Origin: Blasia pusilla
Lineage: Eukaryota
Assembly (NCBI GenBank): GCA_050084515.1
Contig: CM114271.1
Span: 1,178,001 to 1,242,000 of the forward strand
DNA length: 64,000 nucleotides
Direction: 5' to 3'
Positions within the stretch are counted from its first letter, which is position 1, and each line of letters opens with the position of its first letter. The position numbers and the translations under genes were made by a program. This document shows positions 11,901-51,542 of the stretch, piece after piece. The notes under the pieces were generated by a model, which searched no databases, had not been told where the DNA came from, and saw nothing but the letters and a program-made list of their open reading frames with translations.

Positions 11901-14900
11901 TCAAGAGACACACCTTGCCTGGATGAGTATGGTGTACCTCCATGTAGATCTCCTCTTTCAGTTCTCCATTTAAGAATGCAGTCTTCACATCCATCTGTTC
12001 CACCTCCCAATTATGTTGAGCTGCTAATGCCAAGAGAACTCTAATGGATCCATACCTTGCAACAGGAGCAAAGGTCTCCTGATAGTCTAAACCAGCCTCC
12101 TGATTGAAGGATTTTGCAACCAGACGTGCCTTGTACTTCAAGATCTCATTCTTTGGTCCCCTTTTTATTCTGAAGACCCATTTGCAACCAATGGTCTTTC
12201 TACCAGGTTGCAAATCTACAAACTCCCATGTCTCATTTTTCTCTTGAGACCTTTTCTTCTGCCACAGCCTGCTCCCACTGTTTGAATCATTCCTGCTCAT
12301 AGCCTCACTCAAAGAGTTGGGCTCTACAACTCCTTCTTCAATAGAATGAGCTTGACAGGTTTGGAAATTCTTCCAGATCTCCTTTGCTCTGAGATCTCCT
12401 TGATCACTCCCTCTGTGGACTCATGTGCCTCTAGAACTTGCTTGGCTGCACTTCTCCTTTGGTACACCTTCATAGGCTGATCATTTTCAACATGATCTTC
12501 CCTCTCTTACATTGGGTGCAAGTATCTAATCCTCCACTACATTCTGCAAGTGTATCCTTTCATACTTCCTCCTTATCAGCATCTTGATGTGAGTTGACAC
12601 TACAGGGATGTTTACAGGAGTGACAACAGAAGTGATTACTGGCATCACTTGGTGAATTGACTCTTTGTGCTCAGAGTCTTTCCAAAAACTCTTCTCATCA
12701 AAAGTCACATCATTGCTTGAATTGCCTTGCAGGTTCTAGGATTATACAACATGTATCCTTTCAGCCCTTCTTCATACCCAACAAATATGTAAGCCTTTGC
12801 ATCTAGTTTCCTCCTTTGTGTATCAGGGGTGAGGCATAGCCAACACAACCAAACACTTTCAATCTAGAAATGTCAGGTTTCTTACCAGACCAGCACTCTT
12901 CTGGAGTTACATTCTTCAAGGCCGTGTGGGACTGATGTTCCTCAGACAATTTGCTGTCATGATAGCTGCTCCCAGAATTCTTGACCAAGCTTGGCATGTT
13001 GCAACATGCTCAAGGCTTTTCTTGCAAGGTTCTATTCAACCTTTCAGCTACTCCATTTTGGTGGGGCTGTTGTAACATCTTTTAATATCCCCTTGGCTGA
13101 GAGATATGCTTGAAAGTCTTTACTTGCATATTCTCCTCCTCCATCAGACCTAAGTCTCTTCACTCTTAGTTCAACTTGCCTCTCTGTCATGTTGACAAAG
13201 ATAACAAATTTCTCTAGAACTTGAGCCTTGCTGCTTATCAGGTACACAAAAATGCTCCTCCTAGTGACTTTACAGGCATTGGTCCACACACATCAGAGTG
13301 AATCAAGTCCAATAATCTTTCAGACCTGTTAAGTGACCTTCTGGGAGCGGGTGACTTGTGAGCTTTCCCTTGCACACAAGCCTCACAGAACTCAAGCTTC
13401 TGTGACTTTCAATCTCCACACCACATGACATTCCTTGCAGAGCTCGAATGCTGTGTTCGCCAGGTGCCCCAATCTGCAATGCCACAGATTCAGCAAGCTC
13501 CTATTCTCAGTGAGATTTACCTGCTCCTCTGGATCACATTCCAGCAGTTTGAACAAATTTCCTTGTACCACTCCTCGGCACAAGACTTTCCCATTTCTTT
13601 CAAGTGTGCAAGTCTGGTTTGAGTTCCAGAAGTGCACATCAATTCCTGCCTCCAATAATTTCTTAACTGACAACAGATTTTTTATGTAATCTGCAACATA
13701 TAACACTCCATGCAGCTGCCATTTCATCAATTTGCTTTCATCAGCACTGAAGAAAATAGAAACTGAGCCAACCCCTCCCACAGGACTTAACAATCCAGAA
13801 GCACTTCTCACGTGATGATTACTTGCTGGTTTTAGGTCTGAGAACAATCTTGATAACAGACATGTGATGGAGTCCACCCACCATCCACTGCTCCTCTTGA
13901 GATCTTTCTCACACGAGGCCATCATGAAAGAACAGCAACTTTCATCAGATGTGTATTCAGTAGTCATCACTCCAGCAACCTTTGCCTTATCCTTGTAGGA
14001 GGTACTTTGCTTCTCCATCAACTTCTCTTGATTCTTGACTGCAGATCCACTCCTTTTAACTTTCTCTCCCTTTTCAACTTCTTTGGACAATTGAGCAAGA
14101 TGTCCCTTCTCTGCACAAATGTAACAAGTTCTGGTCTCTTTCCACTTCCTATCCCTGTTGAGCATGACTGTTTCTTCCACAATCACCTCTCGCTTCTGAT
14201 CATATCTCAGGAGCTTGTTGGTCACAGATTCCCATGTAAGCAAATCTGCCTCCCAGGTTTCAAAGATTGTAACCATTGTATCAAATTAGGAGGTAAGGAG
14301 GATAGCAACAGGGTTACCTTCCATATAGGAATCAGTTCCTGTCCAACTGCTTTCACTTGTGCAAAAGTTGACTCCATTTTGGCAATGTGAGCTGCAACTC
14401 TATCTGTGTCAGCCATCCTTGTGAGCTCAATGTCTTCCATCTTTGCATAGCTAGAGTCAAAGCTGACTCCTTGTTCAAACTCTTCAGCTTGGACCAGATC
14501 TCCCAAGCATTGCTTATACCATCCACCAACTCCCTCATAGAGGAGTTCAGGGTCTGTTTGAGTAAGATAGCTGCCAACTGATTTTGCAAGTTTACCACAA
14601 GCTCTTCTAGATTGTGAGGTTTCATCTCAACATACACCCACAACCCTTTCAGCATTAGAATGTCCATCATGGTTCTGGACCATTCTCTATAGTTCCCACC
14701 ATCTAACTTCTCTACACTGCTGAAATCACTAAGAGAAAGGTTTGGGGTGGGCCCATAACCTGAGAAAATGATTGACCAGCAGAAGTATCCCTTGTACAAA
14801 GTCAGAGCTAGCATCAGCTAGACCATCCATGATTTCAGCTTGTACACAATCAGCAAATCAGTTCCTAATTGCCAAATCAGAGCCCTACCATGATGTGACT

Positions 14901-17900
14901 CTTCTTACTATCTAAGAGATACTAAGAAGGATTCTACTCAGCCACACCTTGCACTCACTACAGGTCCTCACATGTCACTAGCTCAGAGATCAGACATGAC
15001 TCACCATTGAGCACAAACAATCTCCATCAGCATTCTAGACAAATCAACCTGCCTTCCAGTGAGGCTCTAGCAAGCACAGCAATTAGTCTCAATCTCCTCT
15101 TCCTACTCTCTGATTCTGCAGCAGGACCAAGAGCCTCAGGAGTCCTCACCAAAACTGTGCATGCTGTAGAATTGGCTTCTGCTCTCTAAAGAGAGACATT
15201 ATATACATGAGGGTGAGCACTTCTGGCCCTTGGATCTTCTTGAACAGATCCATACCCTAAATAACAGATGGTGGCTAGCCCTAACTCGAGAATTGCCCTA
15301 ATTCAAGGTTACCCTAAAAAGATAGAGGAACACTAAGTTATCTCTAGCTAACTAAATTAGTATCCAACTAAGTTAGTATTTGACTAACTACTTTTAGGGC
15401 ATGACTAAACTAGATATTAACAAATTTCAACAGTGTAACCCACCTTGATTGGATAAGCCTTGTACCTCCCTAGAATCCAACCTTATCAGGGGTTGGAACA
15501 AGATTTTAAGTAGATGGAGAATATTTTCGGTTGTTAAGTTACTCAACTGATACTAAAAGAGCACCAGAGTGAGTGTTATAGTGAAAGTGTTCTCAGAACT
15601 TTATGCTGCTGGGAAGACGTTTGGAATTCACGAGGTATGAAATATGTTTACCTGAACCCTCAATGTCGACCCTCAAGGGAAAGAGAAGTATTGTATACAA
15701 TGAAATGTATGGAAAGGGAAGTAGTGTACAATCAATCCCTTTCCATCGCTTCTGTGCGAGGCCAAATTCCCTTGTGTATGTTTCCAGGTTGAGCATCTCA
15801 TCTGGCAGCACTCCTGAGGATGCAATTGTTTAATTGGTGTGTTCCACTTCTGAAGTAACCCTTCAGTTATCAAATCAGCTCTTAACAGAAGCTTGAGCAG
15901 ATTTATGGTGGAGATAATTCACATATTCATATTCAATTATCTCATCTATGTGCATACCATTTGACTCTCACTGGACTATTGAATGGCTGTGTCTGATGCC
16001 CACATTTTAAAAAGAACAGGCTTGAAGTTGGGTAGTAGAAACCAAAGTAAGGCATGAGGAAGGCTTACTCGAGCTGCCAAGGTTGGTGTGGGATTGAATT
16101 TGGAGTGGCGCTTCTGGAGCAGAAACATGGGAGTTGAGTGACAAGTTGAAATGTCGGAAGTAGCTGGAACCAATGTAACCCTATTGCTGCTCTAAAGTGT
16201 TGTCAGGCATCACTTGGGCCCAAAGGAAGCCACGAAAGGAAGTCTTGGATATAAAAGGGTTCAAGAGATGTCAGTGCAATAAAGCTCTCTGCCAGGCCGG
16301 AACTGTGGGAGCAAGATGAGTACTACTTTGTGGAGACCATATCTAAAGCTTTAGGAGAGGGCTCACAGGAACAGAGACTTAAATCAAGCAACTGAAATGT
16401 CAAACCAGTAGAACTGTAGAACTACTTACAGAGGACTGCTTGTTTGGGAATCTTTCCATAGTTCCAGAACATCCATCCATCCATCCACAGGAAGGATGGA
16501 AAATAATCAAAGTCCTTACGTGACAACACAGATGAATTTTCTATATACCACTGGATTATGTTATATTTATCACTTAAATTGCAACACACTACACTGAAAT
16601 TGCTTATCTAGTCTCACGGAGTTGTTCATTGTGTGTGGTGCCCCAAGCCATGGCACTGGTTAGTAATGTCTATTGATGATCCAAATCAGGTAAGTTAGAT
16701 TAGATAGAGTTATAAGGAGTTTTCTGGTTGGTTACTTCAAGCTCCGCACCAGTGCTCATTAGGATAAGATCTCATAGTATATGCGTGTCTTTCCTCGGAT
16801 GTGATACTTGCTTCCTCCTTTCTTCCCTCTTCAATTCTGGGACCATTCCAGCCCCTCTCACACTATCTAAGGCTGGACGCGGGAGCTGTATCTCAAATTT
16901 AAGATATGCAGGACTTGACAATTACAGTCTCTTGGAGAAGTTAGGTATGGTCAACTAAGGCAGTACTAACATGTGCAACAGATTGAGTCACTGAGCACTC
17001 ACACATTTGGCTTGCCACACACAGTGCTTGGTATGCAGCTGACCTAATTTCAGGGTCTGTGTCCCAAGTTTAAGATATGTACCACTTGACAGGTACAGTC
17101 TCTTGGAGAAGCTAGGTGGTAAACAAAGGGAGTTTTAACTTGTGCAGTGGATTGTGTCATTGAGCAATCACACATTTAGCTTGCCCGTACCAAAGTGGAC
17201 ACTCTCCACACACCAAATACAGTGCTTGATATGGAACTTGTCTAATTTTCCAATCAGTGTAATGAGCCTTACACTCGCACAGAACCATACAGAGGAGGCA
17301 GGGAATGCATTAACACTTCCCACAACACTCACAGCCCTCAGCATCACTCTAGCAAATTGAAGCAAAATATGCTATGTGAAAAGATTGTATGCACTGAATG
17401 GGAGTGAGCAGAACTCCATTTGTAAGGTCCCAATGGAGGTCTTTCCCTGTTTGACAGTGTGGCTATATCCCCTAACTTGCACCATTAAACCCAGTTATCA
17501 AACCCTGCCTCTTGGGCTCACATGAAACCCTAGTCGTGAGGTCCCAAAGCAACCGGCTTATCTCAGGAATTTGTTGATTGCTTCCGGACTGAGATACTTG
17601 TCTTGAACATGTGTGACTGTTGGAGACTTGTAATGGACATGCATTTCTTGTGGTCATGACATTGATATTATCCGATCTAATCTGAGTCAGTGTCTTCTTC
17701 CATGATTCATGAGACTTACTGTAAAAAACATTTGTCTGAACAATGCCAAACACAGCACCGTACAGATCTTTCCAAAATTCACGGAATTTTAGTAGGTTAT
17801 TGGGTCCTATGTGTGTTGAGTTGATGCAGTCTATTCGTAGGGTCGATAGAGCCTGAATTTCAATGACTAGTAGATATGTAGACTTTTTTATGTATGGCTG

Positions 17901-20900
17901 GAAGACAAAATCTGCTATTAAACTTTTGTTTGTGGGTGGAAGTTACCCAACAAGGACATCGGACTCTTTGTACAACTGGCAAAGATGTGTGCAATTCACT
18001 CCTTTGTCCAGAGGTTGCCAGTTTAGATTAAATCTTGAAAGTTTCCAAATTCTGATCTGATACACCTAAGGTTGAGTTTATTTACACTCCAGTCTGCAGG
18101 TCCCAAAATATGGTTTGTGGATGACCAGGGAGTTTTCTGGGTTCTGTTTATCCCACTTAAAGTGCTCATCTGTTACAGAACCAAAAGAAACCTTCCCTTT
18201 GTAGCACCATCCTGTGTCAGGCAGTCTGGTTCTGCATTGCTTGATTGAGACACTCTTCTCTTCTGGTCGAGTGGAGGTATTTCATGGGATAACCTTAGAA
18301 CAGTGTTAGCTGGGAGTGCACTCTCAATCAAAAAAGCTTCCACGTTTTGATGGTTTGAGTTATCTTGTTATCTTTTGGCATCTCATCTGCTGATAGTATG
18401 GACTTGTATCTTGTTTGATCCTGGATGTGGTCAAATAGAGAGATTTGATGAAAATATTGCTGGAAGTTGTTGTTTTACTGTGTTGGAGACATGTGGTTGT
18501 GAATATCACAGGTGGTTGGAAAATGGTGGACTTCTATAACCATGTGAAGCATTGCACGACTCATCCCAAATTTCTTCATAGCAATAGTACCAGCCACCGA
18601 TGGGTCTTTGGTGCCATTGCAGAGTATGTTCTGTCCTTGGTCTCTCCCTTGACAATGTATTGGGTTCAATTGGTACTTTGTTGTGAACCATTCACACTTA
18701 ACCATATATTCATGATGTGTTGTAATATGTTCTAAGAACAGAAACTTCAGGTTTCTCTCTTGTATTTCATGTCCTTGTTATCATGAGTGCTTTTTGTGGG
18801 TTGCAACGTTCAAGCTCTTGTAGGCATCTATGAAGGAAAAAGTCCCATACGTTTTGTACTGTATGTAGTTTTGTTCTGCCCATTCTATCAGCAATATGAG
18901 AACCATCATTTTGACTACATTTTTCCGTATGTGTAGCAGTCCTTGTCTCTTAAATTTTTCACAGGCTATGAAGTTCTGGTGTTAATTTTGGCAGGTTGAT
19001 CGATAATGCCATTGATCCAGATGTCAATGCATCTCAGTTCTGTATTGATATGAAGGAATTCAATGGGGAACCTTGTTTGGTATTCATGGACAATGGTTGT
19101 GGGCTAATTCCAGAGAGACTTCACAAGATGCTCAGCTTTGGCCACTCGAAGAAGGTGAGAAATGCAGTTGTATCCCACTGACTTTGGACACTATATTGGA
19201 ATATCGAAGTATCATGGCACGGGAATGCAAAATTTGATTCTCTTCAATTTGTATCTTGTAAGGATTATATTTTCCCTGCTTGACTGTTCCATAATAATGT
19301 TATGGTCGTGTGTTTTTGCAGCAAATGAATCCAGGAGATAGGTCAATTGGGAAGCATGGCAACGGTTTCAAGGTAGGGAGGTCTTCACGTCTCATATTAA
19401 GGATCGTGCTCATGCCAAAATGTTGTATAGCAGACAGTAAAGAGAATCACATTTTTGTACATTGGGCAATCTTGTAGTATGCTGTCAGGTCCTCATATTT
19501 CCGAGCTGTGGATGTTAGCCTGTCTCATCAACTAAATCATATTGTCCGTGGGTCCAGAATACATGTTTGTATCTACAATCTGATGTGCCTGACATGTGGT
19601 TTTCCAGTCAGGGACGATGCGGCTTGGAAAAGATGTCCTTGTACTCACTAAATGTGCCACCAGCATGACTGCCGGGTTTCTCTCACAAACATTTTTGGTA
19701 ACATGTGCCTGTAATAAGATTCCTCAAGCACGTTTTGTGACCTCTATTCTTTCAATCTTGCTACTTGCTTTTCACCTGTCAATCATCCTTTCAATGTGCT
19801 GTAGGTATTTCTGTAGTGTGTATCATCTGAATTGGATACCATTTATAGGTCATTGGATCAGTGGTAATGAAGCCAGTCATGAATCTCGTTTATGAACATT
19901 GTTTGGAAGTGGAAATCTCAAACTTTTGGATTCAACTAACAGAAGGAACCATCTGCTACTCTTGAATTATGCCTACTAATGAAACAATATTTGGACTGTG
20001 ATCATATTTCCAGGCAGATACACAAGCTGAGGATATACTCATCCCGCAAGTTTCATGGGATTTGGAAGGAAATATCCTTTCACCTTGTTTTGTTGTTTTG
20101 GTGATTGTTAGGAAGTTCTCCTGCAACCTGGAAATTAACATTAGACCTTGTTAAGCACATCACTAGTCACTGTACTTTTTTTCTTTTCCTTAGCATGTAT
20201 TGTAATGACTGGCAGGTCGGACATTATCATTTGTCTTGTGTGCCATCTGCATGTGTAATATGGTAGTAAGGTCTTATTCTGTTGCAGAAGATGTCTGCCT
20301 TGACGCAAGGAAACATCGTCTCTCTCCCATGGATCTCGAGATTGAAGAAAGTCTTAAGGCCATTTGTACATACTCTATCTTTCCTGATGAAGAAAGTCTC
20401 CTTGCGCAACTGGAAGCAATACCCCAAACAGGCGCAGTAAGTTTGTCCCTGCACATTCATATTCAACAACTTCCGTGTAATTACAGTCCAGTCTTGTATT
20501 CTGCCTTTGTCTTCATCTCTCTACGTTCTAGTGGGTCTATGGTCGCAAGGCTACAATAGGGGCTACTTAAGGAGTACAGTCTCTTAGTTCTAGTAGGTCA
20601 CCCAAAAATGAGAACTATATTGTTTACTGCTTACCCTAAACCAGTAGACTGAAATACAAGTTCTGGAGGTGCTACTCCCCAGAATCACTAGAAGAGTAGT
20701 ATAGTAAAGGGGTTGAGTCTCTCACCAAAATCTTTCAGATTGGCTGAGGAAGGGATAATACTCGGTTACTTGAAAGAAATTTTCTGTAGAAGAGGAAAAA
20801 CTTGAATCAGCCATCATGGTATTAGCAGAGCTAATTCTCCAAGTTCACTAGTCTATATTCCAAGCCCAAAGTTCCAGCACTGCTTAGTAATGTGTGTTCA

Positions 20901-23900
20901 GGGTCCTGTTTCATGCAAAGTTCATGTTTTTGTGGAGAGATTCCTTACTCAAACTTGGAATCCCTGTATTAACACTCCACTAAGCAAGCACTCTGACTGT
21001 TTAAAAGTCTTCATTTCTTCCTCTTGTTGCACATATCTTAGTCTTTGGCAACATCTGACCCTGTAGTAGACTACAGGACATTTAAGGCTATGACAGCCAT
21101 TATGCACTGGACTGATTCTTACTGTCTTAAGAGGAGTTATGTGTTCTTGTTTCGTAGTGGGAGTGGGAATGGTAGTATACATGGGCTTATTGAGTGCACC
21201 ATCGTGAGTAGAATGAACAAGTGAGCTGAAGGAGGTGACAGCGTGGGGTGGAGAATTTGTGCTTTTTCCCTCCACTGAGAATTGTGTGGATTGAACTTCT
21301 TCATAGCCTCCTTAAAATGAAGTGTATGGAGAGTGGTTTAAGGATATCAACATCTTCTTCCTGTTGGAATTGGTGTTGGTGAGGTGCTAAGAGAAGTACG
21401 GGATTAATTTTCCATGTTCATGTCTTGGGGGTGTGCATTGTCTTGTCAACACTGTTGTAACTGGTGTAGAAATATATCTGACGAAGTAAACATTTTCTAC
21501 TCAGCTGGTGTTCTACTGGGACTACCACGACGGATCCAGATAAGTTCCATAGTTGCCTAAACCAGTTCCGCACTCGTCATACAACTTATCCTCTAGTGTC
21601 TTCCCTGCCCAAGGAACAGAAACGTGTTGGTCAAGATAGAAGAGTCCAGCTATTTACAAGGATGATAATCCCTCAAGAACAAGGAGCTCTACTTTCTGAA
21701 GAAATGTCTTTAAGATTCTGTAGATGTTCAATATCTTGGATTTGATGTTGAGCAAATTTAGTTCTCATGATATGTTAGCATTAATAACTCGTACAGAGAG
21801 AGTTCTCAAAGCAATCGTTGTATATCCATTCAATTTCTTCAGTCTCTGTGGTGTCTTTTTCCCTTTTTACACCTGGATTTTACTCCACCTGTCCAACAGC
21901 TTTTCGGGTCTAGGTCCACCCTTCATCGCTGGAGTGGAGTTAGCCTCGTAAAGCGTGAACTTTCCTTCGCTGGCTGTTTCAAAGGTATGTAGCTCCAGAT
22001 TTGAGTCCATATGCACATACCCTTTGCACTCCACAGCTTTGTAATTTATGGTCGTGCAATTCCAGCGCTTGTTGAGGGATAAAGAATCCCAAGGTATGTT
22101 TTCCATCGTTGTTTCTGGCTGCTGCTTGCAATGACTGAATCTCTGCAAGGAGTTGCAAGAGCTTGTCTAAGTGCAGTACTCTTTACTATCTTAGGCTTCC
22201 TGTTGCTTCCATAGCAATGAGAAGTGCAGAACCGCGGGAGTAATTTTAATCCTTTCCTGGGGGAAAATGGATGGTACCTGGTCAGTAATGATTATGATTG
22301 GTGAAAGTGAGTAGCATCCAGTAACTCACCCACGTTGCATTTACTCTTGGGCTTATTCAAAGTCTGACTCCAATTTCCTTTGTATTCCATTTCTTATAGT
22401 TTCAGTTAACAAAAAAAATTGTACTTATGGACAATCTGACAAACTGGTTTCTTTCTTGTACATTGGGTGGTTACTGGTCTCTGATCGGAAGTTGAACTCC
22501 TGCCCTTTATCATTTTCAATTCAGGGCCACAATCTATTGATTGTATCCTGCTATCTTTTTATACTCTCGTCAGATTTCGTCTCTTACACTTTCTTGTCAC
22601 AGAGCCTGTGTCTGCTTCTTGTACGTTGATGGTCTCCTCATATTTTCATGTTTGTGAACCTTTCTATATGTATCTACTGTACAGACATTCTGATAGCCAA
22701 TGACAAATCTGAGTTTCGCAGTTGTCTTTGGATTAGTAATAGAATCTCTAAGAGTAGGTAGTGCTACTTGAACTTCCGTAGAAGCTGGATATTCAATCTC
22801 TGAATATCCACTAATAGGTGAGAGCCATCACCATAACTATCAGTAGCATCAAGTACTTCCTGCAATTTTTTTCACTCAGCTATGTATCAGAGTGGACTTG
22901 TGATTGCTAACTTTATCAATCAAGAGAATTCTATAAAGAAGTGTAAATTGTACTGCTTTTGTAAAGTTTGAGTATTTGGGTGGGTTAACGAGTTATAACA
23001 TGTGCGCAGATCTTAATTATCTCAAACTTGCGCCGTCATGAAGGTGTTCTTGAGCTTGACTTTGAAACAGACCCACATGACATTCGGATAACTTCTGAGA
23101 TCACTGCATCACACTTCCAACAGCTTCGTCCAAATCAGGTTGCCTTTTATGCTTCCGATTTGTACATGTGCAGACGTAGTGAAGTTTGCTTTATGTACTA
23201 TGACATGAGTCTGATTACCCTCAAGGTTTATCCTTAGGTTGAAACGAGAGACATTACTGTGCGTGCTATTCTGATCCAGATTATGAACCACCCAAGACTT
23301 TTGATTTGAATGTAATATTTCGTAACACCGGCGGCATACATGGAGTATAAGAGTTTCAGCTAGCCATATTTAAATGAGGATGAATGGGAGTGAAGCTGAT
23401 TTGATCTGCATAGGTGATGGTGATGGTTAGTGCATCCATGCCTTCCAGTCATTAGTGGTGTTTTCTGTACTTTGTTGGCTCAATCTGAGCTCAAAATGAC
23501 TGACTAAGTTTCGGCCGACATTTCTTGGGGAATGCAGCCTAATACCACTGAGGTCCCAATGGACTTCTCTTTACGGGCGTATGTATCAATTCTGTACAAG
23601 GTCCCCAGAATGCAAATCTTCATACGGTATGTTCCGCGCAGACTGTTTCCCACATGAGTTAGTGTCCATGGAAAGTAGGAGAGTGAGTGAGTAGAGGAGA
23701 AGTGCCAGGCATATGAGTCAGCCTTTGAACCCTGTGATACTGCACTGTCATATGTGAGTGGTGTTTGAAATTCAGGTGTGATGACACTTGTAATAGGACA
23801 CTTGTGATGACTAGTTCATTATTAACTATAGCAGCGTTAAACCATTCATAGAATGAGTTTATATGGAGTCATACCACTTCCCAGCTATCCACAGGGTTGT

Positions 23901-26900
23901 AGGAAGAGACCTAGAGGTTTCTCTTGGATGCATTAAGGAGCAGCTCACTCTTCTGTCGGGAGATCCAAATCTCTTGGTGGTTGGTTAATCAGGGGACAGG
24001 ATTGGATTAACATGTATATGACATGTAGCCCTGCTTTGTAAACAACATGTCTGATAAGACACTAAGAGACATAGCCCTCATACTTGAGTTGTGATTGTTC
24101 ATGAACCGAAATGAGCCTGACCTTCAGAGGTCAGACTCTGTGTGTTTGACTGTGTTTTTTTATCTTCAATCTTCAATCTGTAGTTCAGACTGAGTGAATT
24201 CTTACAAGTGGCATCAAAAGAGTAGAAATTAGTAACTGGTGTCGTACCATAAGTGAGAGGTTTCCAAAGGCTTGTTTGAGGCTGAACTCACTGTACATTC
24301 ATCAGTGAAATTATTTTGAAAACTTACACCGGGCTACACATCTAGAGAGCTTGTAGTTTTTCTGAAGTTGTATTTCCCATTTCTTGTGATGTGGAAGAGA
24401 TAAGAAGGTGAAGACAAAGAGGATTGCAGGGATTCTTAGTCAGAAGGAAACAGAGACATATAAGCCATATGGAGTGGCAGAAAGCATCAAAATTGAGCTA
24501 GGGTAAGTGTGATCCAACAAGTTTCTTTTGTATTCTCTATTTTTTCTGATGCTACCATGGGAATGCCTTATTTGAGTCAAAGCAGGTGAGATTTGATTCA
24601 TATATCCCTTGAGGAAGAGGCCCAGGATTCTGGATGAAACATATGAGGGTATTGAGCACCTGTTTCTTGCCTTGCAGTTTCAACACTGAAAATAAGAGCC
24701 TTTATGGTATGATGCTTTACCACCGCAATCGGTTGATCAAAGCATATATGCGGGTATGATTCTTATCATGACACAATCATAGACTTATTCTAGACCAAGA
24801 TGTGTACTTCTCTTTGATCAAACTGGCTAATTTGGTTCTGTTACCAGGTTGGTATGCAACTTGAGGAAAATGAAAGGGGGATGGGTGTAATTGGGTTGGC
24901 AGAGGCCGACTTTCTGCAACCAACACACAACAAGCAGGTCTGAAGTTATAGAGTCAGTGTGTATTTAACCTCTGAGTATTTTCTGTTTAGGAAGACTCTT
25001 TCTTTGTGTTTTGTGTCTTTGTGAGTATTCAATAAGCTTACATTGTGTCTGTGGATCATAACAGGACTTTGATGATACAACTGCATATCGTCGTCTACTG
25101 AAGAAACTTTCTGAAGTGTTGGCAGAGTATTGGTGGGTTTGTCTATTCACAATGATATTTCTTTTGTTTTTAATGACTGATAAATGGAAAAGTTAGCATC
25201 TGGTATGTAGTGTTTGTTTTGGACAGATATCGTATTTAGCTTTCAAGTGCAGTACATGAGAGATTCTGCATGTTATCGTAGGTGGGAGAAAAAGGAAAGG
25301 ATTTATACACCTCCAATTCAACAAGAATTACGCACTATAAGGCGAGGTCCTCCGCTGGTAGCTTCAGAGGATACTCCTGATGTGATCTGGGTACCTTCTG
25401 AATCTCTCTGTTGGAAATTTGAGCACAGTTGATGTGCCTTAGACAACAAGCTATCATTTGTTGCTTTGCTTTGCAACATTTGTTTGATTACCGAGAAGTG
25501 AATTGTTTTGTTGACTGTTCTACGCTCTCGTAGTAAATACAAAAACATCACATTTGCAGTGAGTTGAGTTGTACAGAATGTGAAAATTTATTGGTTTTCA
25601 TTCTATGATTATGCAGGTTCAGTGTGATAATCCCACATGTCTGAAGTGGCGTATTCTGCCACCAGGCACAGATGTTTCTTTATTGCCAGATATTTGGTGA
25701 GCTTGCATGGTTTTCCTTTTCGTGTTTGTATGGTTAGATATAAATGCATATTTTGAGAAATCAGGTTAGAGATTCATAAGGTTCGAATTGCTGGAGTACA
25801 TTTGCAAGACCTCTGAAACTATGTAGCAGTGCAACCTATATCTGTATTGTGAAAAGAATTGACCAGCAGAGGTATCTCCTTGGACTAAGTCAGAATTAGC
25901 ATCAGCTAAACCATCTTGTATACAATCAGCAAATCAATTTCTATCTCTATTGCCAAATCAGAGCCGTACCATGATGTGACTCTTCTTATTATCTAACAGA
26001 TACTAAGAAGGATTGTACAGTCACACCTTGCACTCACAACACAGATCCTCACATGTCACCAGCTCAGAGATCAGACATGGCTCACGTCATTGAGCACAAA
26101 CAATATCTATCAGCATACCAGACAAAACGACTTGCCTTCCAGTGAGGCTCTAGCAATCACAGAAGTTAGTCTCAATCTCCTCTTCCTTCTCTCAGATCAC
26201 TCTGCAGTAGGGCCAGTGCTGCATGACACACTGAGAGCCTCAGGAGTCCTCACCAAAACCTATGCATACTGTAGAATTACTTTCTGACTCTAAGCAGAGA
26301 CAATATATACATGAGGGTGAGCACTTCTGGCCCTTAGATCTTCTTGAACAGATCCATACCCTAAATATCAGATGGTGGCTAGCCTTAACTCGAGAATTGC
26401 CCTAATTCGAGGTTACCTTAAAAAGATAGAGGAACACTAAGTTATCTTCAGCTAACTAAATTAGTATCCAACTAAGTTAGTATTTGACTAACTACTTTTA
26501 GGGCATGACTAAATTAAATATTAACAAATTTCAACATGTATCACAAGTGGCATGATATGGATCACCTGTCTCATGACATTCCACTCATACAACTATTTCA
26601 GATTGGAACTTCTAGTTGCATGCAACAATTTTCAATCTTCTCGTTTTGGTCTTACCACATTCAGACTTGCACTCAGAAGGTTTGAATCGCCAAGGAGTTC
26701 TAGCTCAGTTTACAAAATTCGAATTTCTGCCTTCATGTGTCTGGTTTCCCAAGGAGTCTTGGGGAGGATTAGACTTTTACGTAACCATCAGATAGGTAGA
26801 AGTTTATGAAACCAGCCATTCTTTTGAGAGCCATCATGCATGAGTTTGAAGAAGTACTCCATGTAGTCAAGTCCAAACATCTGAAAATTTATTGGGCACA

Positions 26901-29900
26901 TCTCAAATTTGTTTTGTAGGTACTGTGAGTATCATCCAGATGAAAAGTACCGGAGGCATGAAGAACCTGAACAAGAATGGGACGCCTCTGTTCAACACGA
27001 GGTAATGTCCAAGCATGAGGTAATGTTCATCTACAGCCTGCTCATTTACTCCTCCATACAAAAGAATGAGCAAGAATACGAAAAAGAAACATAGCATGGG
27101 TACTCATTCTTTTCTTTGATTATTATGGTACATTCAAAAGACTGGTTGTGTTCTAATACTGTGGCGGATTACACTAAACAAAGATTTGGTATTCATTCAC
27201 GTGAAGTTTGATAGATACAAAAAAGGAGAACAATTTCGATCTTTCTTGGTCCAATTTTCTTATATTCCAGGGTGTCTCCCCACAGATTGTTGAAAGGAGG
27301 AAGGAGCGCAAAAGAGAGTACGACCGTGAGAAGAAGGAGCGAGAAGCAGAAAGAAAACGGCAGCGGCTGGTGATTTTCATTACTTTGAGGAGTAGCTTAA
27401 ACTTTCACAATTTATGCTCACGTATTAAAAGAGAGCCACAAAACCTTATGCAACAAGAATAGTAGTTTTTTTCTAAAGTTTGGAACTTTTGTATTTCAGG
27501 AGGCCCAAACAAGAGATACCCAGGCATTACTGCAGAAACAAAAGGAAGAAATGGCAAAAAGTGTCCAGGAGCAGCAAGAACGAGAACAGCTTGAGCTTCA
27601 GGTTTGAACTATTTCTGTATCAACTCATTAGGTTCTGTGGAGGTAGTATGGGACCGCACCTCACCCACACTGCATTCACCAGTAAACAAAGTGATTTTTC
27701 CTCCTTTCAGTTAAGAGGATGTTCGTTTTTTCCAGTGTTCTATTTCTAGTCACACCAATGCAACCAGGGCACAACTTGTATGACTAGAAGATACAGTAGG
27801 CAGTACTGATCTAGTAGAGTTTGTAACATTACTTCAAACCTGCAAGTTTTCCAAGTGAAACCCGAAATCCTTACCCACATTTGAACTCCTTCATTTGCTC
27901 ATCTCTGGGTGGACTTGGACAGATGCCTCTCTATAGATTCAACTCTCATTTCTAATTTAATTCTTCTTTGTCTTTGATCTCGAGGCCCAGCTAATGTGGA
28001 GTCTGCTCAAACCAGTTAATTCTCTTTTTTGAGCATTTTATCATGCTTTGTGCACCCATTGGGGTTGGGAGGATTTTCCTTTTGGTCTTTAAATGGGCCA
28101 CTTTTGTTGTCTGTATTCACGAAACATCTAATCTGGGCCCATATCATGCAGGAACAAAAACGACGGCAGGAGGCAATGAATAAATTGACTGAGGTAAAAA
28201 CATCATTTGTGAAAGAAACCAAATTTCCTATTTGAAGAGAAGTATTGGCATCAGACCAACAAATTATCCATTTATCTACTGACAGGAATATGCAGCCATG
28301 GAGGCCAAGCGTGATGAAATGCTCAGACAGCAGAAAGAACTTGAGAAGCAATTGGAGCAAACACAGGAAGAACTGACCCTTAAGGCCAAAGAAAAAGAAG
28401 ACAATGCTCTTCTTCAGCTCCAGAAGGTGTGCGACGGTTGTTTTTAAGTACTTGGTCCAATTCCCTAGATAGCTGGCCTTATGCTTCCAGTGTCCTTGTC
28501 TTTTTGATCTCTCAAGTAGTCCATTGTTCACAGTTAAGTTTATTTACTTGGTTTTCGGGTCCATGTAGAGAATGAATCAGTTAATTCATTTCTTAATATT
28601 CTGCTCCTGCTTCGGTTCTTGGTTTCTTCTCCCTTCTTTCTATCTGAAAAGTGAAATCTCAGGCCTCTTCTTACCTTCTTCTGCTTACTTGGTATCCGTG
28701 CTTACTTAGTATCCGTTTGTGAAGTACGATGCTTAAATATTCCATGAAGTGCAGTTTTGACAGTTTCTAACTGCTCAGCTAATTGCAATCCTACAGTACT
28801 GTTTTGGGTGTTACATTCCTTAATCCATGTTATAAAACATCTACTAGGGGGCGCCTTAGATCTTTGAAATAATTAAGCTTAGTTATCCGGTTCTTGAAAA
28901 TCAAATTCAAATGTGTGTGTCGTATGTTGGTATGCAGGCTCCATCAGAGCGAGAGGAATCTCGTGATCTACGGGAAAATGGTCGTCTTCCAGAACCAAGA
29001 CAAGATGATCCTGCTCCTCACAGTGTTGGGAACAAAGTTGGTGGAAGTTCCAGAAGTACTAGAAGACCTCTAGAAAGGGAGAAACCTGGAGCAATGCAAG
29101 AACCGAACCTCCAAGATATTGTTCCCTTGGCTTTGTCTTCACCACAGTCACAACATTCTTACCCTCAAACCAACCAGGGCTCTCATGACCATGCAACAAA
29201 TGGACTACCCCCATCAGACACTAGAGGTGGCCACGGACTTGCTGCATTGACTCCTTCTACATCCCCCCGGAAAAGAGCAAAAGAAGCACAGGTTTGTATA
29301 GCCTGCTGCAAACTTTTTGCTACTTCTATATATATATCAACAAATAAGATTCGAAGTCCTTAAGTGAATGGTGTAAGCCTTTCCTGAACACCGGAGATGT
29401 GATTTTGTGCAGGTATCACAACCTTCTCGCCATGGCAAGACACTTGAAGCTGTTTCCAACTCGAACAGTGGATCTTCTCAGCAAACACAACGCAAGGCAA
29501 GTAAAAAAGGTTTCTGATCTGTGAGAGAGGGCTTATTTCTTTCTTCATTAAAATCTGGAGGGCCGTGTTCCCAAATTTATGTCCTTAGTGGTAGAAGGCT
29601 TGCTACTGTGTGTGTCTTGTCCAATCGTCTCTCTCCTTCAGCACATGAAGCTGTATCCCAAACCTGGTCTATCATTTTCTATACAATCTACATGGATCTG
29701 GTGCTGGGTACTCATGATGAGGTTAGAATCTGTTCTCATGCAGGGAACAAGTTTGCTATCAACATCCTTATGGGCGAATGGTGTTCAAGGTGCACGGGTG
29801 GATGGTGTCAGAAGAAAATTCCGAGCAGTTCAATCTTCCCAATCAGTGCATATTGATAGTTCTCCAGCTCAGGACTCGCACAGATATGAAGGGGGAGACA

Positions 29901-31656
29901 GGTTGTCTACTGGGGAAGACCCTCCCCTTGCCCATCCATCCACCCCTGCAACACCTTTACTAGGTTGTCCTCCGTCAACAGCCCCTTCTGAACGACAATT
30001 CCAAAATCCAATCCAGCATAGTCTTATGAGCCAAATCCCTGCACCAAATGAGCAAATATTGGAAGTATGTACATCTAGCTTAGAACAAAGATCCGCCGGA
30101 GAGTCTGGTGCAGCCCATCAAGAACTCTTAGTTTCATCAGCAGGTGCCAATGGGTCGTGTCTGGAAGGTTTGGATCAAGGCCAAGTACTCCATCATTACG
30201 GTCATGTTGAAGACACAGGAAGTGATCAGCTGGAAAACTCTGGCGGCCACCAGGATTTCTCTGCAAGGTAAGGATCATATAGTCTTGACCCCTGGGAAAG
30301 AGGAACAGATCGAGTGTCTGTGCCTGTACTTCCAAGACATTGTGAACTTGGCGCTCTTTCTTGATGGCTAGGTTTGGGCCTAATGTGTATGAATTTCCGT
30401 GTGTAATGAATGTGTCACTCACGTTTTGTTTTGCAGATTTGATGAACCTCAAGGGAATCTATCATTTGGATCTGGGATGCTCTCTGTCCATCTTCCAATG
30501 GATTTAATGGTGACTTCCAACTGCAGAAGTGAAGCAGAATTGACATTAGACAAAGCAGTTTTTTCATTACAAAGGTACTAAGGGTTGTATTGATTGTGTG
30601 TCCAAATCTTTTCTTGTCTTCTCTGTAGGAGTTTTAGAATTGCCAGGCTGGAAGTCCTTTTGCCAAAAGTTTTACTTAAGAAACCTTCAAGAATTGTTCA
30701 AGTGCCAGTTCCTGGGGTTTGTTGACTTATTTCTGGGTGTCCTGGATGTGTATTGATACATCACATCTGTATTGATGAAAACAGGCGCTTAAGACTTGCA
30801 TTGAACACACTGGTAAGAATTGGAGGATGTGCAGATTCAAACCTCTTTGAGTTGGATGTGCTCCCAAGCACAGATTCTGAAGTGGTAAGTATACTGTTTG
30901 TGACACTCAAATGCATCCAATCTCAAATAAGGACTGGTTGGCAATGCTAATTAAAGCCATAGAAGGGAAGCTTGCTAAAGGCTCTGGTCTTTTTTGGTTG
31001 GTATCTTATGGGGGTTGAGGACGAACTAAGGTAGTCTCATTACAGTCTTTGGTTTGGATGAGATCTTGTGCCAGTTGTTTGGAAGGGTTACTCTAATAAA
31101 GTCTGGGTTGTTGGTTCTGTATGCAGGTAAATCTTTGTGAGAAGGTAACATCATTCCCTGTCTTACTGTAGCAAAATGATTCTGCGCAAGTAGTGCAGTT
31201 CTTGTTTATTGAAGGTTCCATAGTCAAAGGATAAGCAATAGATAGTTGCATTTGGACTAACGTTTGAGGTGGTCCTTCATAATTGCTCAGGCTAATACAG
31301 GTATTGGTAATGTGATGAGATACTAAATGGTAGTTCCTCTTTTTTCAGGCCAAGCTGCATGTGGAAACGAAAGTACAGAACTACAGACAGGAAGTGGCTA
31401 ACTTGAAAGCAGAGTTGGCGTACTTGATGGCCGACAAACTGCAGGTAATCGTGCACTTTGAGTGATGCTGCTTTTCGTGTCTGCTGGCTGATTTTGTTTG
31501 TGCATATTTTAAATTGCCCTTAACTGTCATTTCTGTCGGGACTAGTGGAAGATGACCAATGTATTGAGCAATTAACTTGACCAGTGTAAGTACTTACTTG
31601 AGGCGTGTGTGTAGGACAGCATGGGCAAAGTTGGAACTTTAAGATACAAAGTATAG
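8918..31656 (+). CDS. MORC: MORC family GHKL ATPase with CW-type zinc finger and C-terminal coiled coil (~1090 aa, ~29 exons)
   Basis: Manual exon chain: 8918-8957 and 9506-9577 (these two tentative), 18512-18623, 18995-19154, 19322-19372, 19608-19697, 20014-20071, 20315-20436, 23010-23138, 23538-23626, 24398-24502, 24678-24753, 24848-24937, 25065-25132, 25282-25390, 25617-25696, 26920-27001, 27271-27369, 27500-27601, 28152-28193, 28286-28426, 28938-29291, 29413-29496, 29744-30267, 30437-30574, 30785-30884, 31127-31144, 31349-31444, 31615-31656. All phases are consistent. Motifs: [96 protein letters not shown]. Confidence 0.9.
11008..11632 (-). repeat. 3' LTR of Copia element 1 (625 bp)
   Basis: Direct repeat of 14761-15432, reading TGAGAAA...TTTCAACA. 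Confidence 0.93.
11640..14745 (-). pseudogene. Copia gag-pol, multiply frameshifted, lacking the RT C-terminus and most of RNase H
   Basis: ORF fragments 14353-14814, 14222-14506, 13392-14276, 13044-13289, 12803-12997 and 11683-12312. Shortly after YVDD the sequence jumps to the RNase H tail [17 protein letters not shown]. Confidence 0.85.
14746..14760 (-). promoter_or_regulatory. Primer-binding site complementary to the anticodon arm of initiator tRNA-Met (half-tRNA priming)
   Basis: The minus strand reads GGTTATGGGCCCACC immediately after the 5' LTR. The + strand GGTGGGCCCATAACC matches the anticodon stem-loop of plant tRNA-iMet as I recall it. Confidence 0.85.
14761..15432 (-). repeat. 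5' LTR of Copia element 1 (672 bp)
   Basis: Direct repeat of 11008-11632, adjacent to the PBS. Confidence 0.93.
16886..17250. repeat. Diverged tandem duplication (~171-bp unit, 2 copies) in a MORC intron
   Basis: Shared blocks TTTAAGATATG..ACTTGACA..TACAGTCTCTTGGAGAAG.TAGGT and TCACACATTT.GCTTGCC. Units start near 16886 and 17057. Confidence 0.75.
20072..20314 (+). other. U12-type (minor spliceosome) AT-AC intron in MORC
   Basis: 5' end ATATCCTTT, branch-like GCCTTGAC (20297-20304) 10 nt before AC (20313-20314). Removal gives in-frame [23 protein letters not shown]. Confidence 0.88.
25848..26536 (-). mobile_element. Solo LTR of the Copia element 1 family, inside the intron that splits the zf-CW domain
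   Basis: 689 bp, TG...CA, colinear with LTR 14761-15432 but carrying many substitutions. 5-bp TSD TGTAT (25843-25847 and 26537-26541). Confidence 0.93.
29497..29743 (+). other. Probable GC-AG intron in MORC
   Basis: Donor AAG|GCAAGT and acceptor TTCTCATGCAG|GGA give a phase-0 join into the 29579-30271 ORF frame. Confidence 0.55.
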
Positions 31657-33284
31657 CCAGCAAGTGGGGAATTGGTGTGGAAGTTTCTAAACGAAGCTAG
31701 CCTCGCCATCTCTCCAGCATGTAAAGAATTGAAGCAGCTCACTCACAAGTCAGAATCGAGTCTTCTCCACATCATGTAGCACCAGAAGGATTAGTTAGAA
31801 CACAGATTGTTGTATGGATGGCATTCATCTACAACAACTCAGGACGAGTAGTGGATTGAATGAAGTACGTGGAGAGAATGTAGGAAATTGTGGCAGTAGG
31901 TTTAGGCTTGTCAAATAAACAGTTGGTATCAAAGGTTTGTACAATGCTTTTGTAGATATGGAGGAATGCTAGGAGTTGTACAATATACCCATTTAGAACT
32001 GAGATCTTCCAGAAAGGTGGTATGAGCTCTCAAATTTTGAAAGTTTTGTCCTCAAGTGTAAGGACCTTGACCATCTCAAGTGTTCAAGATGCGTAGATCT
32101 CTGACAGGAGCTCTAATATCTCTTTCATGCGATTTAAAATGTGATATGCCAGACCAAAGTATGCAGGATTCATAAGTACATCCTGGATTGAAGCTTACTA
32201 CCCAGACTGTGTTCGCAGTCACGCCCCAAAATCCAGAAGATGGGATTCTGAGTAAACTTTCAGGTACTGTTGGCTACAAGCTTAGGCATCTCAGGTCCAG
32301 ACCCGCTATGGGTGGTGCAAATGAATCTCATTATTTTAGTTTTAGAATAGTGATGCTTTGCCTTCGAAATTGTGGGTCCTCACCCCCATCTGAAACCTTT
32401 TCCTCACTTCTACACTATGTGTATTGAGGGAAATTTTGATACCCTGTTCGGGAAGCAGAAATAGAAATAGAAATCGTGGAATGAGACAACTGGGGACCTC
32501 CAGTACCAGGGGGAAGGACCCAACTCTGTTTGTGAAGTTACGGTGCCCAACCCCAATGAATGGCCAAAGGGACTAGAGATCCCTTCAAAAGCTCTTCATT
32601 CAACAAAGCTTGGGCATTAGAACTTCTCCCGAGACTTGCCGCTGACTTTATTGAGGTGCTAGTCGGTATTCATGTTATAATCACCTTGATTAGACATGAG
32701 CATTATATCCTGAATCGTCTCTTTTCAAGAGCTTTGGAAGCTCCTAGGTATAATGTTGGTGTTGGGGCAAAGAACTAGTACTACAGTCGTTGTGAGTGGC
32801 TGCCAAAACGAGCCAAAGCATCACTATTCTAAAACTAACCGTGGGTATGTCATGACTTGCCAATAAGCACTGAACTTGAGGTGTTGAAGCAACCATAAGA
32901 CAAGGCCATCTCTATCAATTGAGATTAGCATTTGATAAAGAACAATAATAAATCTGAAAAATAATGTGAAAGGACGGCCCCCACCACACTTTCATGAGTA
33001 TTGGGAGGAACATGAAGTGTACCTCTTACACCTTTGCTTTTATTTCCACAAAGTTCTATGGTACATTAGTTGATCCAAATGTGTGTAAATTAACCTTGAG
33101 ATTGAGGAAGGGAAAATCTTACGTAAGGAAAGAGACAAGAAGGCGTTTGAGCTCATTAATTGTGAACAACGTTATCTTCTCCATTGCACTTTCCAAGACC
33201 CTATGAGATCTTAACTTCCTCATCCCTTTTGAGATGATGCCCTTAGGATCCCTAAGTTCATTGCTAGATAGAAAGACAGCGTAA

Positions 33285-49113: not shown

Positions 49114-51542
49114 AAACCCAAACGTCGATCTGCAGATCACAAAGCAGATTTGGGTTGAGAGCCAAAATCAAGGGTCCAAGGGGGACACTCTCCCTCTCTA
49201 CTCGCACAAGTCCTTGAACTAGGAACTAACCGTGATGCGTATTTGGTCATGTTTCTGGTTTGAGCTAGGGACTGCACCTTGAGGAATAAATTGACACGCT
49301 CTGTTATAGGTGAGCGAACCAGGAAGATTGGTTGAGGCTTGGGGAAGAGGCTTCCTAGGGAGACAATACGCACTTGGGGAGACTCAACTTGATTGGTGCT
49401 TGTTGTCTTCTTGATTACCTACGGAATGCTCAACCGATTGAGTATTCGGGACACAATCTAAATCTTCCATTTGCAAAGCTCAAGGTTGGGAGTGTTTCGA
49501 GGTAGTGAAGGTCGGGAGTGCTTACGGGCTCAAGGTCGGGAGCACTTCTACACTAACCTCCTTATTTCTAGAAGGCAATGTGGAGGTTTTAGAGGAAGGA
49601 TATTTTTTTTACTCTTCATGGATTCTTCCCTCCTTTAATTCAGATTTTATATTTATTTCAACATCCCTAGACCACAATTGAAATATAATGCAATGGGTAA
49701 TCCCCGAACGACTGAACAAAGAGTGTGCTACATTGTTTGAGGGAGGGTAGCAGGGCAAACAAATAGACACTTTTGACAATCTTGGGTTTCAAATGGAAAT
49801 GATCTTTTTCAAAGAATAGTTTTACTAACCCGTCATGTTTCATTAATTATCGTTGATATCATCTCTACTATTGGTCAAATTAGACTTTATAAGATTCTCT
49901 TTTTTCTTCTCCTTGTGGCCTTGTAATTCTTGACTCTATTAATCCCCCCTTCCTGCCCCATAAACAACCATCTTGCCCAGCTTACCAAAGACAATTTTGG
50001 CCAACAAAAGCTTGCCACATGACGATAGGGTCAAATTTTAAATGACCTTTCAACCCCAAATAAGGTGGCATGGGGGCATCTTATTAATTTATTTTATTCT
50101 TGCCCTATATTATTTTTCCTCTTACCAATGGGGGGGAGGCCATCTAGTCTAAGTTTGGTGGGATGGTGTCCTCATGGACGACCGTTCGCGTACTACATCT
50201 GACGGCGGGAGAGGAACCCACTTGGAAACCAGACCGACTGCGGAAAGCAGTGAGCGCTCTTTTTCAGTATCACAGTTGGTACTTCCAGTGCGAAAGAGAC
50301 ACAATAAATGCCTCTTTGAAGGCATATTCCTTGGACTGTTAGTCGAGTCCGTCAGATCAAAAGATCGACGCCTGGAATGCTATGGTAGCCTCACAACGGC
50401 TCTCGCATAGGCTCTCGCAAGATAAAAGAAGAAAATATGCCAGAATTCCACCGTCCTCGAGTCTCCCTGAGTGCCGTTGGATCCGAATCTACGATGCATG
50501 CATACCCTAATGCCCTAATCTGGAACTCCTTCGGAAGTTCAGAGGGAGGGACTCAGGGAGGGAGAGCTTTTGTACTGTAGTGACTTGGCGCACGAGGACC
50601 TTGGAGAGCCAGGGCTACAGGCTTTTGACCATCGGTCACGGAATTTGGAGGACCGACGGTAGCCTGTAGCCTTCGGAGTCACCCGATGCGCCACTGCGCC
50701 AGTCGGTCTGACTCGTTCGGGGCAAGAGCGGAAAAGAGGACAAGGCCCTCCTGTAAATGTGGAACTGATGAGTGCAGACTGCGAAGAATGAGCCAAGAAG
50801 GATTGCGACGCTGATCGAGATTCACGAATCGGGAGCACTGAGCAGGTGCGGCAATTCACCAATTTCACCGGCGTTTCTTGAGGAATAAAGTTTGTTTCAA
50901 TGGCTATTGTAGAAGGGCTAGATTAAATGATGCTTTTGTCGTTTTCTGTCAGTTTATTTTATGCTGAGCGTAGAGTCGGGAGTCGGGACTGGGACTCTCG
51001 CGCGAATGTGTTCATTGATTGATCGCTGGATCGCATCGATTGAATGCTTTCCCCATCAGCCGAGGTGTCCGGGAAGTAGGTTTTCGAGGGGTTTTCATTG
51101 AGGTTGTAGACGTGCCGCTGGGAATCGAGTGTGATTCTTTGGAGACTGCCACTGCCACTTTGGTCTGTGACTGAATTGGCTCGCCGTTCGGTCTCCCACA
51201 CTCGGTAATTGCTACTGTTGCTTCGCGCGACTCCCTTACTCCATTTACTCTTAAGTTTGCTGTGTCGATCTATCAGGCTTTTTCCCGATAGGCTTGGTTT
51301 GGCATTTTCATTCATTCCTTGCAGTGTCTTTGCCTGTCATCGCCTGGAGAGAATGGTATACTCACGTTTTGTGAGATTTCCGGACATTGTCCGTCTACAG
51401 TTCTCCGAGGTGTTTCAGTAAACAAGCTTCTGCGTTTCCTCTTACCTTAGTCCCACTAATACAGCCTGATCCCGACATTCTCACGATCATCCATTCTTGC
51501 CTGTGCAGACGACGCCGAGTGTCGCGAAGGAACTAGGAAGAA

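Follow-up and report, generated by a model that had tools for sequence, protein, structure and literature searches.

We identified a candidate U12-dependent AT-AC intron of phase 1 at positions 20072–20314 on the + strand of the window (the whole 64-kb stretch of DNA analysed here), within the ATPase module of a CW-type MORC gene. With a probability of roughly 0.88, the intron is of this type and homologous to the AT-AC intron of the animal MORC3 and MORC4 genes, which would make it older than the split between plants and animals. Observed directly are the motifs, their spacing, a gap-free join of the flanking exons, RNA from the gene and a position that matches human minor introns already in print. 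From these observations, we infer that the minor spliceosome of the liverwort removes the intron at 20071/20315.

The layout of the host gene was derived by tblastn of P0001, a CW-type MORC of 1050 aa from Calypogeia fissa, against the window. The gene is a CW-type MORC (MORC3/4-like) of ~24 exons on the + strand, extending from 18523 to ~31700, where the end is approximate. For the 41-residue translation of 20317–20439, P0001 is the sole database relative among the longer proteins (85% identity). Between P0001 and the window, tblastn identity amounts to 78–97% in the ATPase and CW exons (residues 1–381) and to 44–89% further downstream. Pfam assigns three domains to P0001, HATPase_c_3 (29–146), Morc6_S5 (247–380) and zf-CW (416–461), and the window exon 25617–25697 matches zf-CW by itself; P0001 and the window exons together thus contain the architecture of GHKL ATPase, S5 fold and CW zinc finger. 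The solved chains closest to P0001 in HMMER are MORC3 of mouse (E = 3e-119) and human (1e-118), then human MORC4 (1e-108); MORC2 follows at a wide distance (7e-68). By sequence similarity, the window gene therefore belongs with the CW-MORCs of the MORC3/4 type and not with the seed-plant type that is described as having no CW. The CW finger is usually absent from plant MORCs, including those of the Arabidopsis type, according to the available part of PMC6048995.

Among database proteins, CW-MORCs of the MORC3/4 type are found in liverworts, lycophytes, several green algae, one red alga and one amoebozoan. The MORC3/4-like proteins with a CW finger from liverworts, lycophytes and green algae (P0001, P0005–P0012 and P0014) belong to a clade that seems under-described and that may be absent from seed plants. 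In the MORC3-like protein P0013 of the mollusc Biomphalaria glabrata, two separate segments (residues ~15–167 and 343–483) match the N-terminal ATPase exons, which suggests that the ATPase module has been duplicated in tandem or that the gene model is a fusion.

The exons around the intron, all on the + strand, were delimited from the sequence and by tblastn, supplemented by pair scoring for the exon directly upstream and by the alignment for the exon directly downstream. An exon of 30 residues (19608–19697) ends in phase 0 before a GT at 19698. It is followed by a 58-nt exon (20014–20071), which is preceded by an acceptor AG at 20012–13, opens with GCA GAT and encodes 19 residues together with the first base (A) of a split Asn codon. 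The 122-nt exon behind the intron (20315–20436) contributes the last two bases of this codon (A + AT = Asn) and then 40 residues; it ends in phase 0 at 20436, and not at 20439, before a GT at 20437.

Sequence and pair scoring define the candidate U12-type AT-AC intron between these two exons as 243 nt in phase 1. Its 5′ splice site, ATATCCTTT (20072–20080), stands directly at the exon end and agrees with the U12 pattern /ATATCCTT. The branch-site box TGCCTTGAC (20296–20304) contains the presumed branch A at 20303, and its core GCCTTGAC (20297–20304) is followed by eight bases (GCAAGGAA) and then by AC. This core agrees at 7/8 positions with TCCTTRAC, which we take to be the branch consensus; the box starts with G where that consensus has T. 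The 3′ terminal AC (20313–20314) comes directly after the purine-rich GCAAGGAA, with no pyrimidine tract, and the presumed branch A is separated from the last intron base, 20314, by 11 nt. Both the short distance and the missing pyrimidine tract are characteristic of U12-type introns. The 13 RNA-confirmed GT-AG introns of the MORC gene, unlike this one, mostly end in a pyrimidine-rich tract and AG. An optimum of 11–13 nt for the distance between branch and 3′ end is given in the available part of Turunen et al. (PMC3584512).

A sequence-only reading of this DNA had proposed an AT-AC intron with these motif elements and had interpreted them as the U12 5′ splice site and branch consensus. All elements are present in the sequence at the positions then proposed, and the 5′ site, the branch box, the branch distance, the absence of a pyrimidine tract and the terminal AC all fit the interpretation. 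The location of the intron within the gene is consistent with it as well: residue 155 of ~1050 falls within the first 15% of the coding sequence, which fits the placement of U12 introns in the 5′ part of genes (Basu et al. 2008, PMC2426677), and phase 1 agrees with the known tendency of minor introns to avoid phase 0 (PMC10639083), as far as the accessible parts of the two papers go. Stable minor-intron densities are reported for land plants in the latter, again in its accessible part. An Rfam scan of the 64-kb window returned 0 matches and no snRNA.

We compared the join in the window with 22 homologues in an alignment of 23 CW-MORCs. The 20071/20315 join is free of gaps against the CW-MORCs of Calypogeia, Diphasiastrum, Selaginella and Coccomyxa, and also against two algal proteins derived from transcripts (P0002 and P0009). 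In the Calypogeia model, the sequence at this point is DLDGN|RLSS, joined as in the window gene. The CW-MORC of Riccia sorocarpa (P0012) is without 27 residues that exactly span the AT-AC junction (P0001 residues ~146–172). This gap probably reflects a faulty gene model that arose because the intron is non-canonical, as expected of a predictor restricted to GT-AG, and it fits the earlier statement that gene predictors mis-model such introns.

Minor introns are documented in human MORC genes. MORC3 appears among the U12-intron genes in Table 1 of PMC1874599, PMC4066798 employs MORC4 as a gene whose U12 intron lies in mid-transcript, and the supplement of de Wolf et al. 2021 (PMC8280824) gives human MORC3 and MORC4 one AT-AC and one GT-AG minor intron each; the statement of the sequence-only reading that animal MORC genes have U12 introns is thus correct for MORC3 and MORC4. 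In 12 of the 13 supplement files of PMC8280824, MORC1 and MORC2 were not found. The flanks of the human AT-AC introns, as tabulated in the files available, translate to N-K-H-(R)-Q in MORC3 and Q-Q-N-(K)-K in MORC4, where the bracketed codon is split after its first base and the intron is accordingly of phase 1.

We located the human flank peptides in the solved MORC3 and MORC4 chains aligned to P0001 by HMMER. The split Lys of MORC4 occupies the same column as the split Asn of the liverwort. The split Arg of MORC3 lies one column earlier, beside a two-residue gap in a loop with indels, and this offset is therefore within alignment uncertainty. With AT-AC type, phase 1 and position all checked, the liverwort and human introns agree: the liverwort intron has the alignment position and phase of the AT-AC intron of animal MORC3/MORC4. 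An ancestry shared between plants and animals, which had been put forward as a possibility from the sequence, is supported by phase, intron type, the identical column in MORC4 and the adjacent column in MORC3.

Agreement of this kind could also arise if a U12-type intron had been gained in parallel at one and the same site in plants and animals, or if the plant gene had been transferred from an animal. The loop contains indels of 1–2 residues and the MORC3 intron is one column off, which leaves some room for these origins, but we consider them unlikely: the phase is the same, the AT-AC subtype is rare and the column is that of MORC4. Independent gain of shared U12 positions is further opposed by P < 0.0001 for the set of Basu et al., in the part of PMC2426677 available, and the presence of CW-MORCs in liverworts, lycophytes, green algae, a red alga and an amoebozoan argues against a recent transfer.

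We scanned JGI metagenome contigs for the back-translated peptide L-[IV]-P-x3-W-[DN]-x2-G followed by one free base and RTATCCTT, a pattern that has 1 match in the window at 0.00 expected. The scan returned nine loci, eight of them MORC and one (L001) unrelated. Seven loci match MORC proteins (tblastn, E ≤ 1e-3); the eighth, L004, is too short upstream, but carries the same peptide and the same downstream exon. In all eight (L002–L009), ...VP[MI]VTWDSDG is followed by one base A and ATATCCTTT, so that the intron interrupts the same codon in the same phase as the window intron. These loci are closely related, with 78–96% identity in the exon, and represent few taxa at most. Their introns are ~1.0–1.2 kb long. 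A CCTTAAC branch box is located just before the exon encoding ...ILEKSDKDKALQDILTHSVF... in 3/8 (L004, L008 and L009), the loci that reach the 3′ end, and in these three the reading frame would demand a 3′ terminus AA rather than AC. In a control with the same pattern, 596 Gb of bacterial genomes gave 3 matches, none with MORC similarity, and viral contigs gave 0.

Two of the metagenome loci carry a second U12-type donor in phase 0, FYRPSA|GTATCCTTT, in L008 (− strand, + coordinate ~765) and in L009 (− strand, ~1043); in L009, an TTCCTTGAC box precedes the exon VNKQVKITFGF. This donor corresponds to the GT-AG minor intron of human MORC3/4, and the liverwort gene has no intron there. Because of it, L008 and L009 look like MORC3/4 orthologues of some non-plant eukaryote. 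Summed blastp scores of the metagenome loci did not separate plants from animals, the score of P0013 being inflated by its duplicated module, and a protein atlas search with these loci returned chance-level phage and bacterial clusters only.

We mapped three raw RNA-seq runs of the same species label (X8–X10) and one contig set (X1) on 18400–31800. The MORC gene is transcribed. Reads are present along it, and their first mate maps to the − strand, the orientation that common stranded protocols give for a transcript of the + strand. The best-supported 15 of 32 joints all lie from 23625 onward, and the 20071/20315 joint is neither among those 15 nor excluded. In the bin 20188–20634, depth is slightly above the prediction for the 122-nt exon in two of the three runs, in bins too coarse to separate the acceptors 20315 and 20288 or to exclude partial retention.

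The acceptor at 20288 would be used if the U12 donor at 20072 were joined, mainly or partly, to the upstream AG at 20287, giving an AT-AG intron and nine additional residues in the main form or in an isoform. The site is U2-like, a pyrimidine-rich stretch (20270–20287, + strand) that ends in CAG 27 nt upstream of the terminal AC, and in its phase, phase 1, the in-frame donors all begin with AT. The pair 20072/20287 is in frame and stop-free, the choice of U12 3′ sites is described as error-prone in the available part of PMC3584512, and the slightly high depth in two of the three runs points weakly in the same direction. No branch box, however, is found 10–15 nt upstream of 20287, AT-AG combinations are disfavoured according to the same part of PMC3584512, and nine extra residues occur in none of the aligned homologues. 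We therefore regard this form as quite improbable and retain the terminal AC at 20313–20314 as the candidate 3′ end.

Several further observations concern the gene and its surroundings. An 18-nt microexon, GTAAATCTTTGTGAGAAG, at 31127–31144 (+ strand) in the MORC gene is flanked by cag| and |gtaaca and encodes VNLCEK, which matches ...SEVVAICEK... in P0001; reads that join 30888 to 31347 carry 12 extra letters mapping to this microexon. A GC-AG intron at 29497–29743 (+ strand) has 20–39 reads per run; the joint listed as ‘AG..GC’ at 29494/29742 becomes ag|GCAAGT...TGCAG|g when shifted by 2. At ~25999–26892, a repeat in a MORC intron shows RNA depth 5–10x that of the exons, on both strands. Variant letters and loose ends are numerous there, which is how a transcribed element present in multiple copies should look. 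The ORF translations of 25997–26284 and 14926–15186 are alike, a similar stretch being located near 14926–15300. Two ORFs of 134 and 154 aa at 14225–14817 on the − strand presumably resemble the gag region of copia-type retrotransposons. At 19360, 29795, 30049, 30199 and other exon positions, all X8–X10 reads differ from the window, the change at 19360 (C>T) being synonymous (GGC>GGT), and X1 contigs agree with the window where the X8–X10 reads differ; the pattern resembles polymorphism between strains or individuals more than it does editing.

We enumerated every splice pair that would connect the two exons in frame and free of stops while keeping the downstream frame, and scored these pairs against P0001 residues 135–194. 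A total of 55 pairs qualify (29 GT/GC-AG and 26 AT-AC). The top score belongs to 20072/20314, with 260 of a self-score of 303 and a length difference of 0, and this pair is the only one with zero length difference among the ten listed (the four highest-scoring of all pairs, plus the best six canonical ones). The clean in-frame AT-AC join of the sequence-only reading is thereby borne out as the best of the 55 pairs and as gap-free against homologues. The best canonical pair, from ctt|GTTTTG at 20087 to CAGAAG| at 20290, scores 237 and adds 13 residues.

Use of the latter pair, or of a similar one, would make the intron an ordinary U2-type GT-AG intron with at least 13 extra residues in the loop, and the U12-like motifs would be coincidental. 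As many as 29 canonical pairs keep the frame without a stop, CAGAAG occurs together with a pyrimidine-rich stretch at 20270–20290, and a pair of U12 motifs is not rare by itself. RTATCCTT occurs 9 times in the window, compared to 4.7 expected; for the combination of 5′ splice site, branch site and AC or AG within 500 nt, the expectation is 0.24 per 64 kb, and 21% of simulated windows contain at least one. The other RTATCCTT sites (12552+, 12753+ and 49603−) pair with branch boxes at chance level only, and the site at 49603− has no coding context. The motif pair alone is thus within chance level and not significant; the signal rises above chance because the motifs sit exactly on both exon ends demanded by homology. 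Against a GT-AG intron stand the weak donor ctt|GTTTTG, the score of 237 compared to 260 and the 13 extra residues, which are found in 0 of 22 homologues. In addition, the coincidence would have to extend to the U12 sites of human MORC3/4 and of the eight metagenome MORC loci. We consider a GT-AG intron very improbable, and the earlier assertion that no convincing GT-AG pair keeps the conserved peptide holds.

U2-type AT-AC introns exist, but removal of these AT-AC termini by the major spliceosome is highly improbable with a full U12 box, ATATCCTTT, at the 5′ site and a U12 branch box 11 nt from a 3′ end that has no pyrimidine tract.

If the candidate intron is spliced by the minor spliceosome, the established mechanism would proceed as follows: (i) U11 snRNA would pair with ATATCCTTT at the 5′ end; (ii) U12 snRNA would pair with CCTTGAC and bulge the branch A at 20303; (iii) cleavage would occur 11 nt downstream of the branch A, after AC; and (iv) the join would yield ...SWDLEG-N-RLSPMD.... 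The intron might tie the dosage of a MORC3/4-type silencing ATPase to the minor spliceosome, especially to its A-type-specific factors (CENATAC in human, DROL1 and TITAN LIKE in Arabidopsis), and might hence have been kept since the plant–animal ancestor; it would then be a conserved regulatory valve and not a frozen accident. We regard this role as doubtful. Support for a regulatory bottleneck of this kind is confined to human cells: there, depletion of CENATAC increases the retention of the AT-AC intron of MORC3 from ~0.20 to 0.65, in the data available from PMC8280824.

U12 introns in MORC3/4 and the cross-kingdom conservation of U12 positions are already published. The CW-MORC family was probably outside the comparison of Basu et al., because Arabidopsis-type MORCs are described without a CW finger (PMC6048995, in part), and MORC has 0 occurrences in the accessible text of Basu et al. 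2008 (PMC2426677). The available part of PMC6048995, a paper on the plant MORC family, mentions neither U12 nor AT-AC, and MORC was not found in the one supplement of PMC10639083 at hand. Within the titles and abstract openings retrieved for MORC with U12-type or minor introns, none concerned a plant MORC, and the passages retrieved referred to human or mouse genes. The intron at 20072–20314 adds a U12 position shared by plants and animals in a gene family beyond the classic human–Arabidopsis comparison, and provides a discrete character that connects animal MORC3/4 with the little-described CW-MORCs of liverworts, lycophytes and green algae. The Riccia sorocarpa model, with 27 residues missing at the junction, points to a concrete annotation trap. 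We regard the liverwort intron as a genuine, if rather unremarkable, case of a minor intron conserved since ancient times; no long-standing question is opened by it, and its interest is modest, with practical value for annotation.

Comparison with known systems shows both shared and divergent features. As in the set of Basu et al. 2008 (the available part of PMC2426677), the U12 position is shared between plant and animal and lies in the 5′ part of the gene. The metagenome loci L002–L009 have the same ATATCCTTT donor and phase 1 as the liverwort gene and differ from it in intron length and in their probable AA terminus. The second, GT-AG minor intron of human MORC3 (KFL|SK) and MORC4 (TFT|NK), of phase 0, has no liverwort counterpart; its position falls within the RNA-confirmed exon 24398–24502 of the liverwort gene. 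The liverwort AT-AC intron, at 243 nt, is shorter than its counterparts in human MORC3 and MORC4, for which the tabulated coordinates give 827 and 739 nt, and its branch box CCTTGAC departs less from the consensus than do the boxes TCTTTAAC and TCTTTGAC of the human introns, as given in PMC8280824. In that source, the human MORC3 and MORC4 introns have the donor box ATATCCTTT, the AC terminus and phase 1 in common with the liverwort intron, and in all three cases the host gene has the GHKL-S5-CW architecture.
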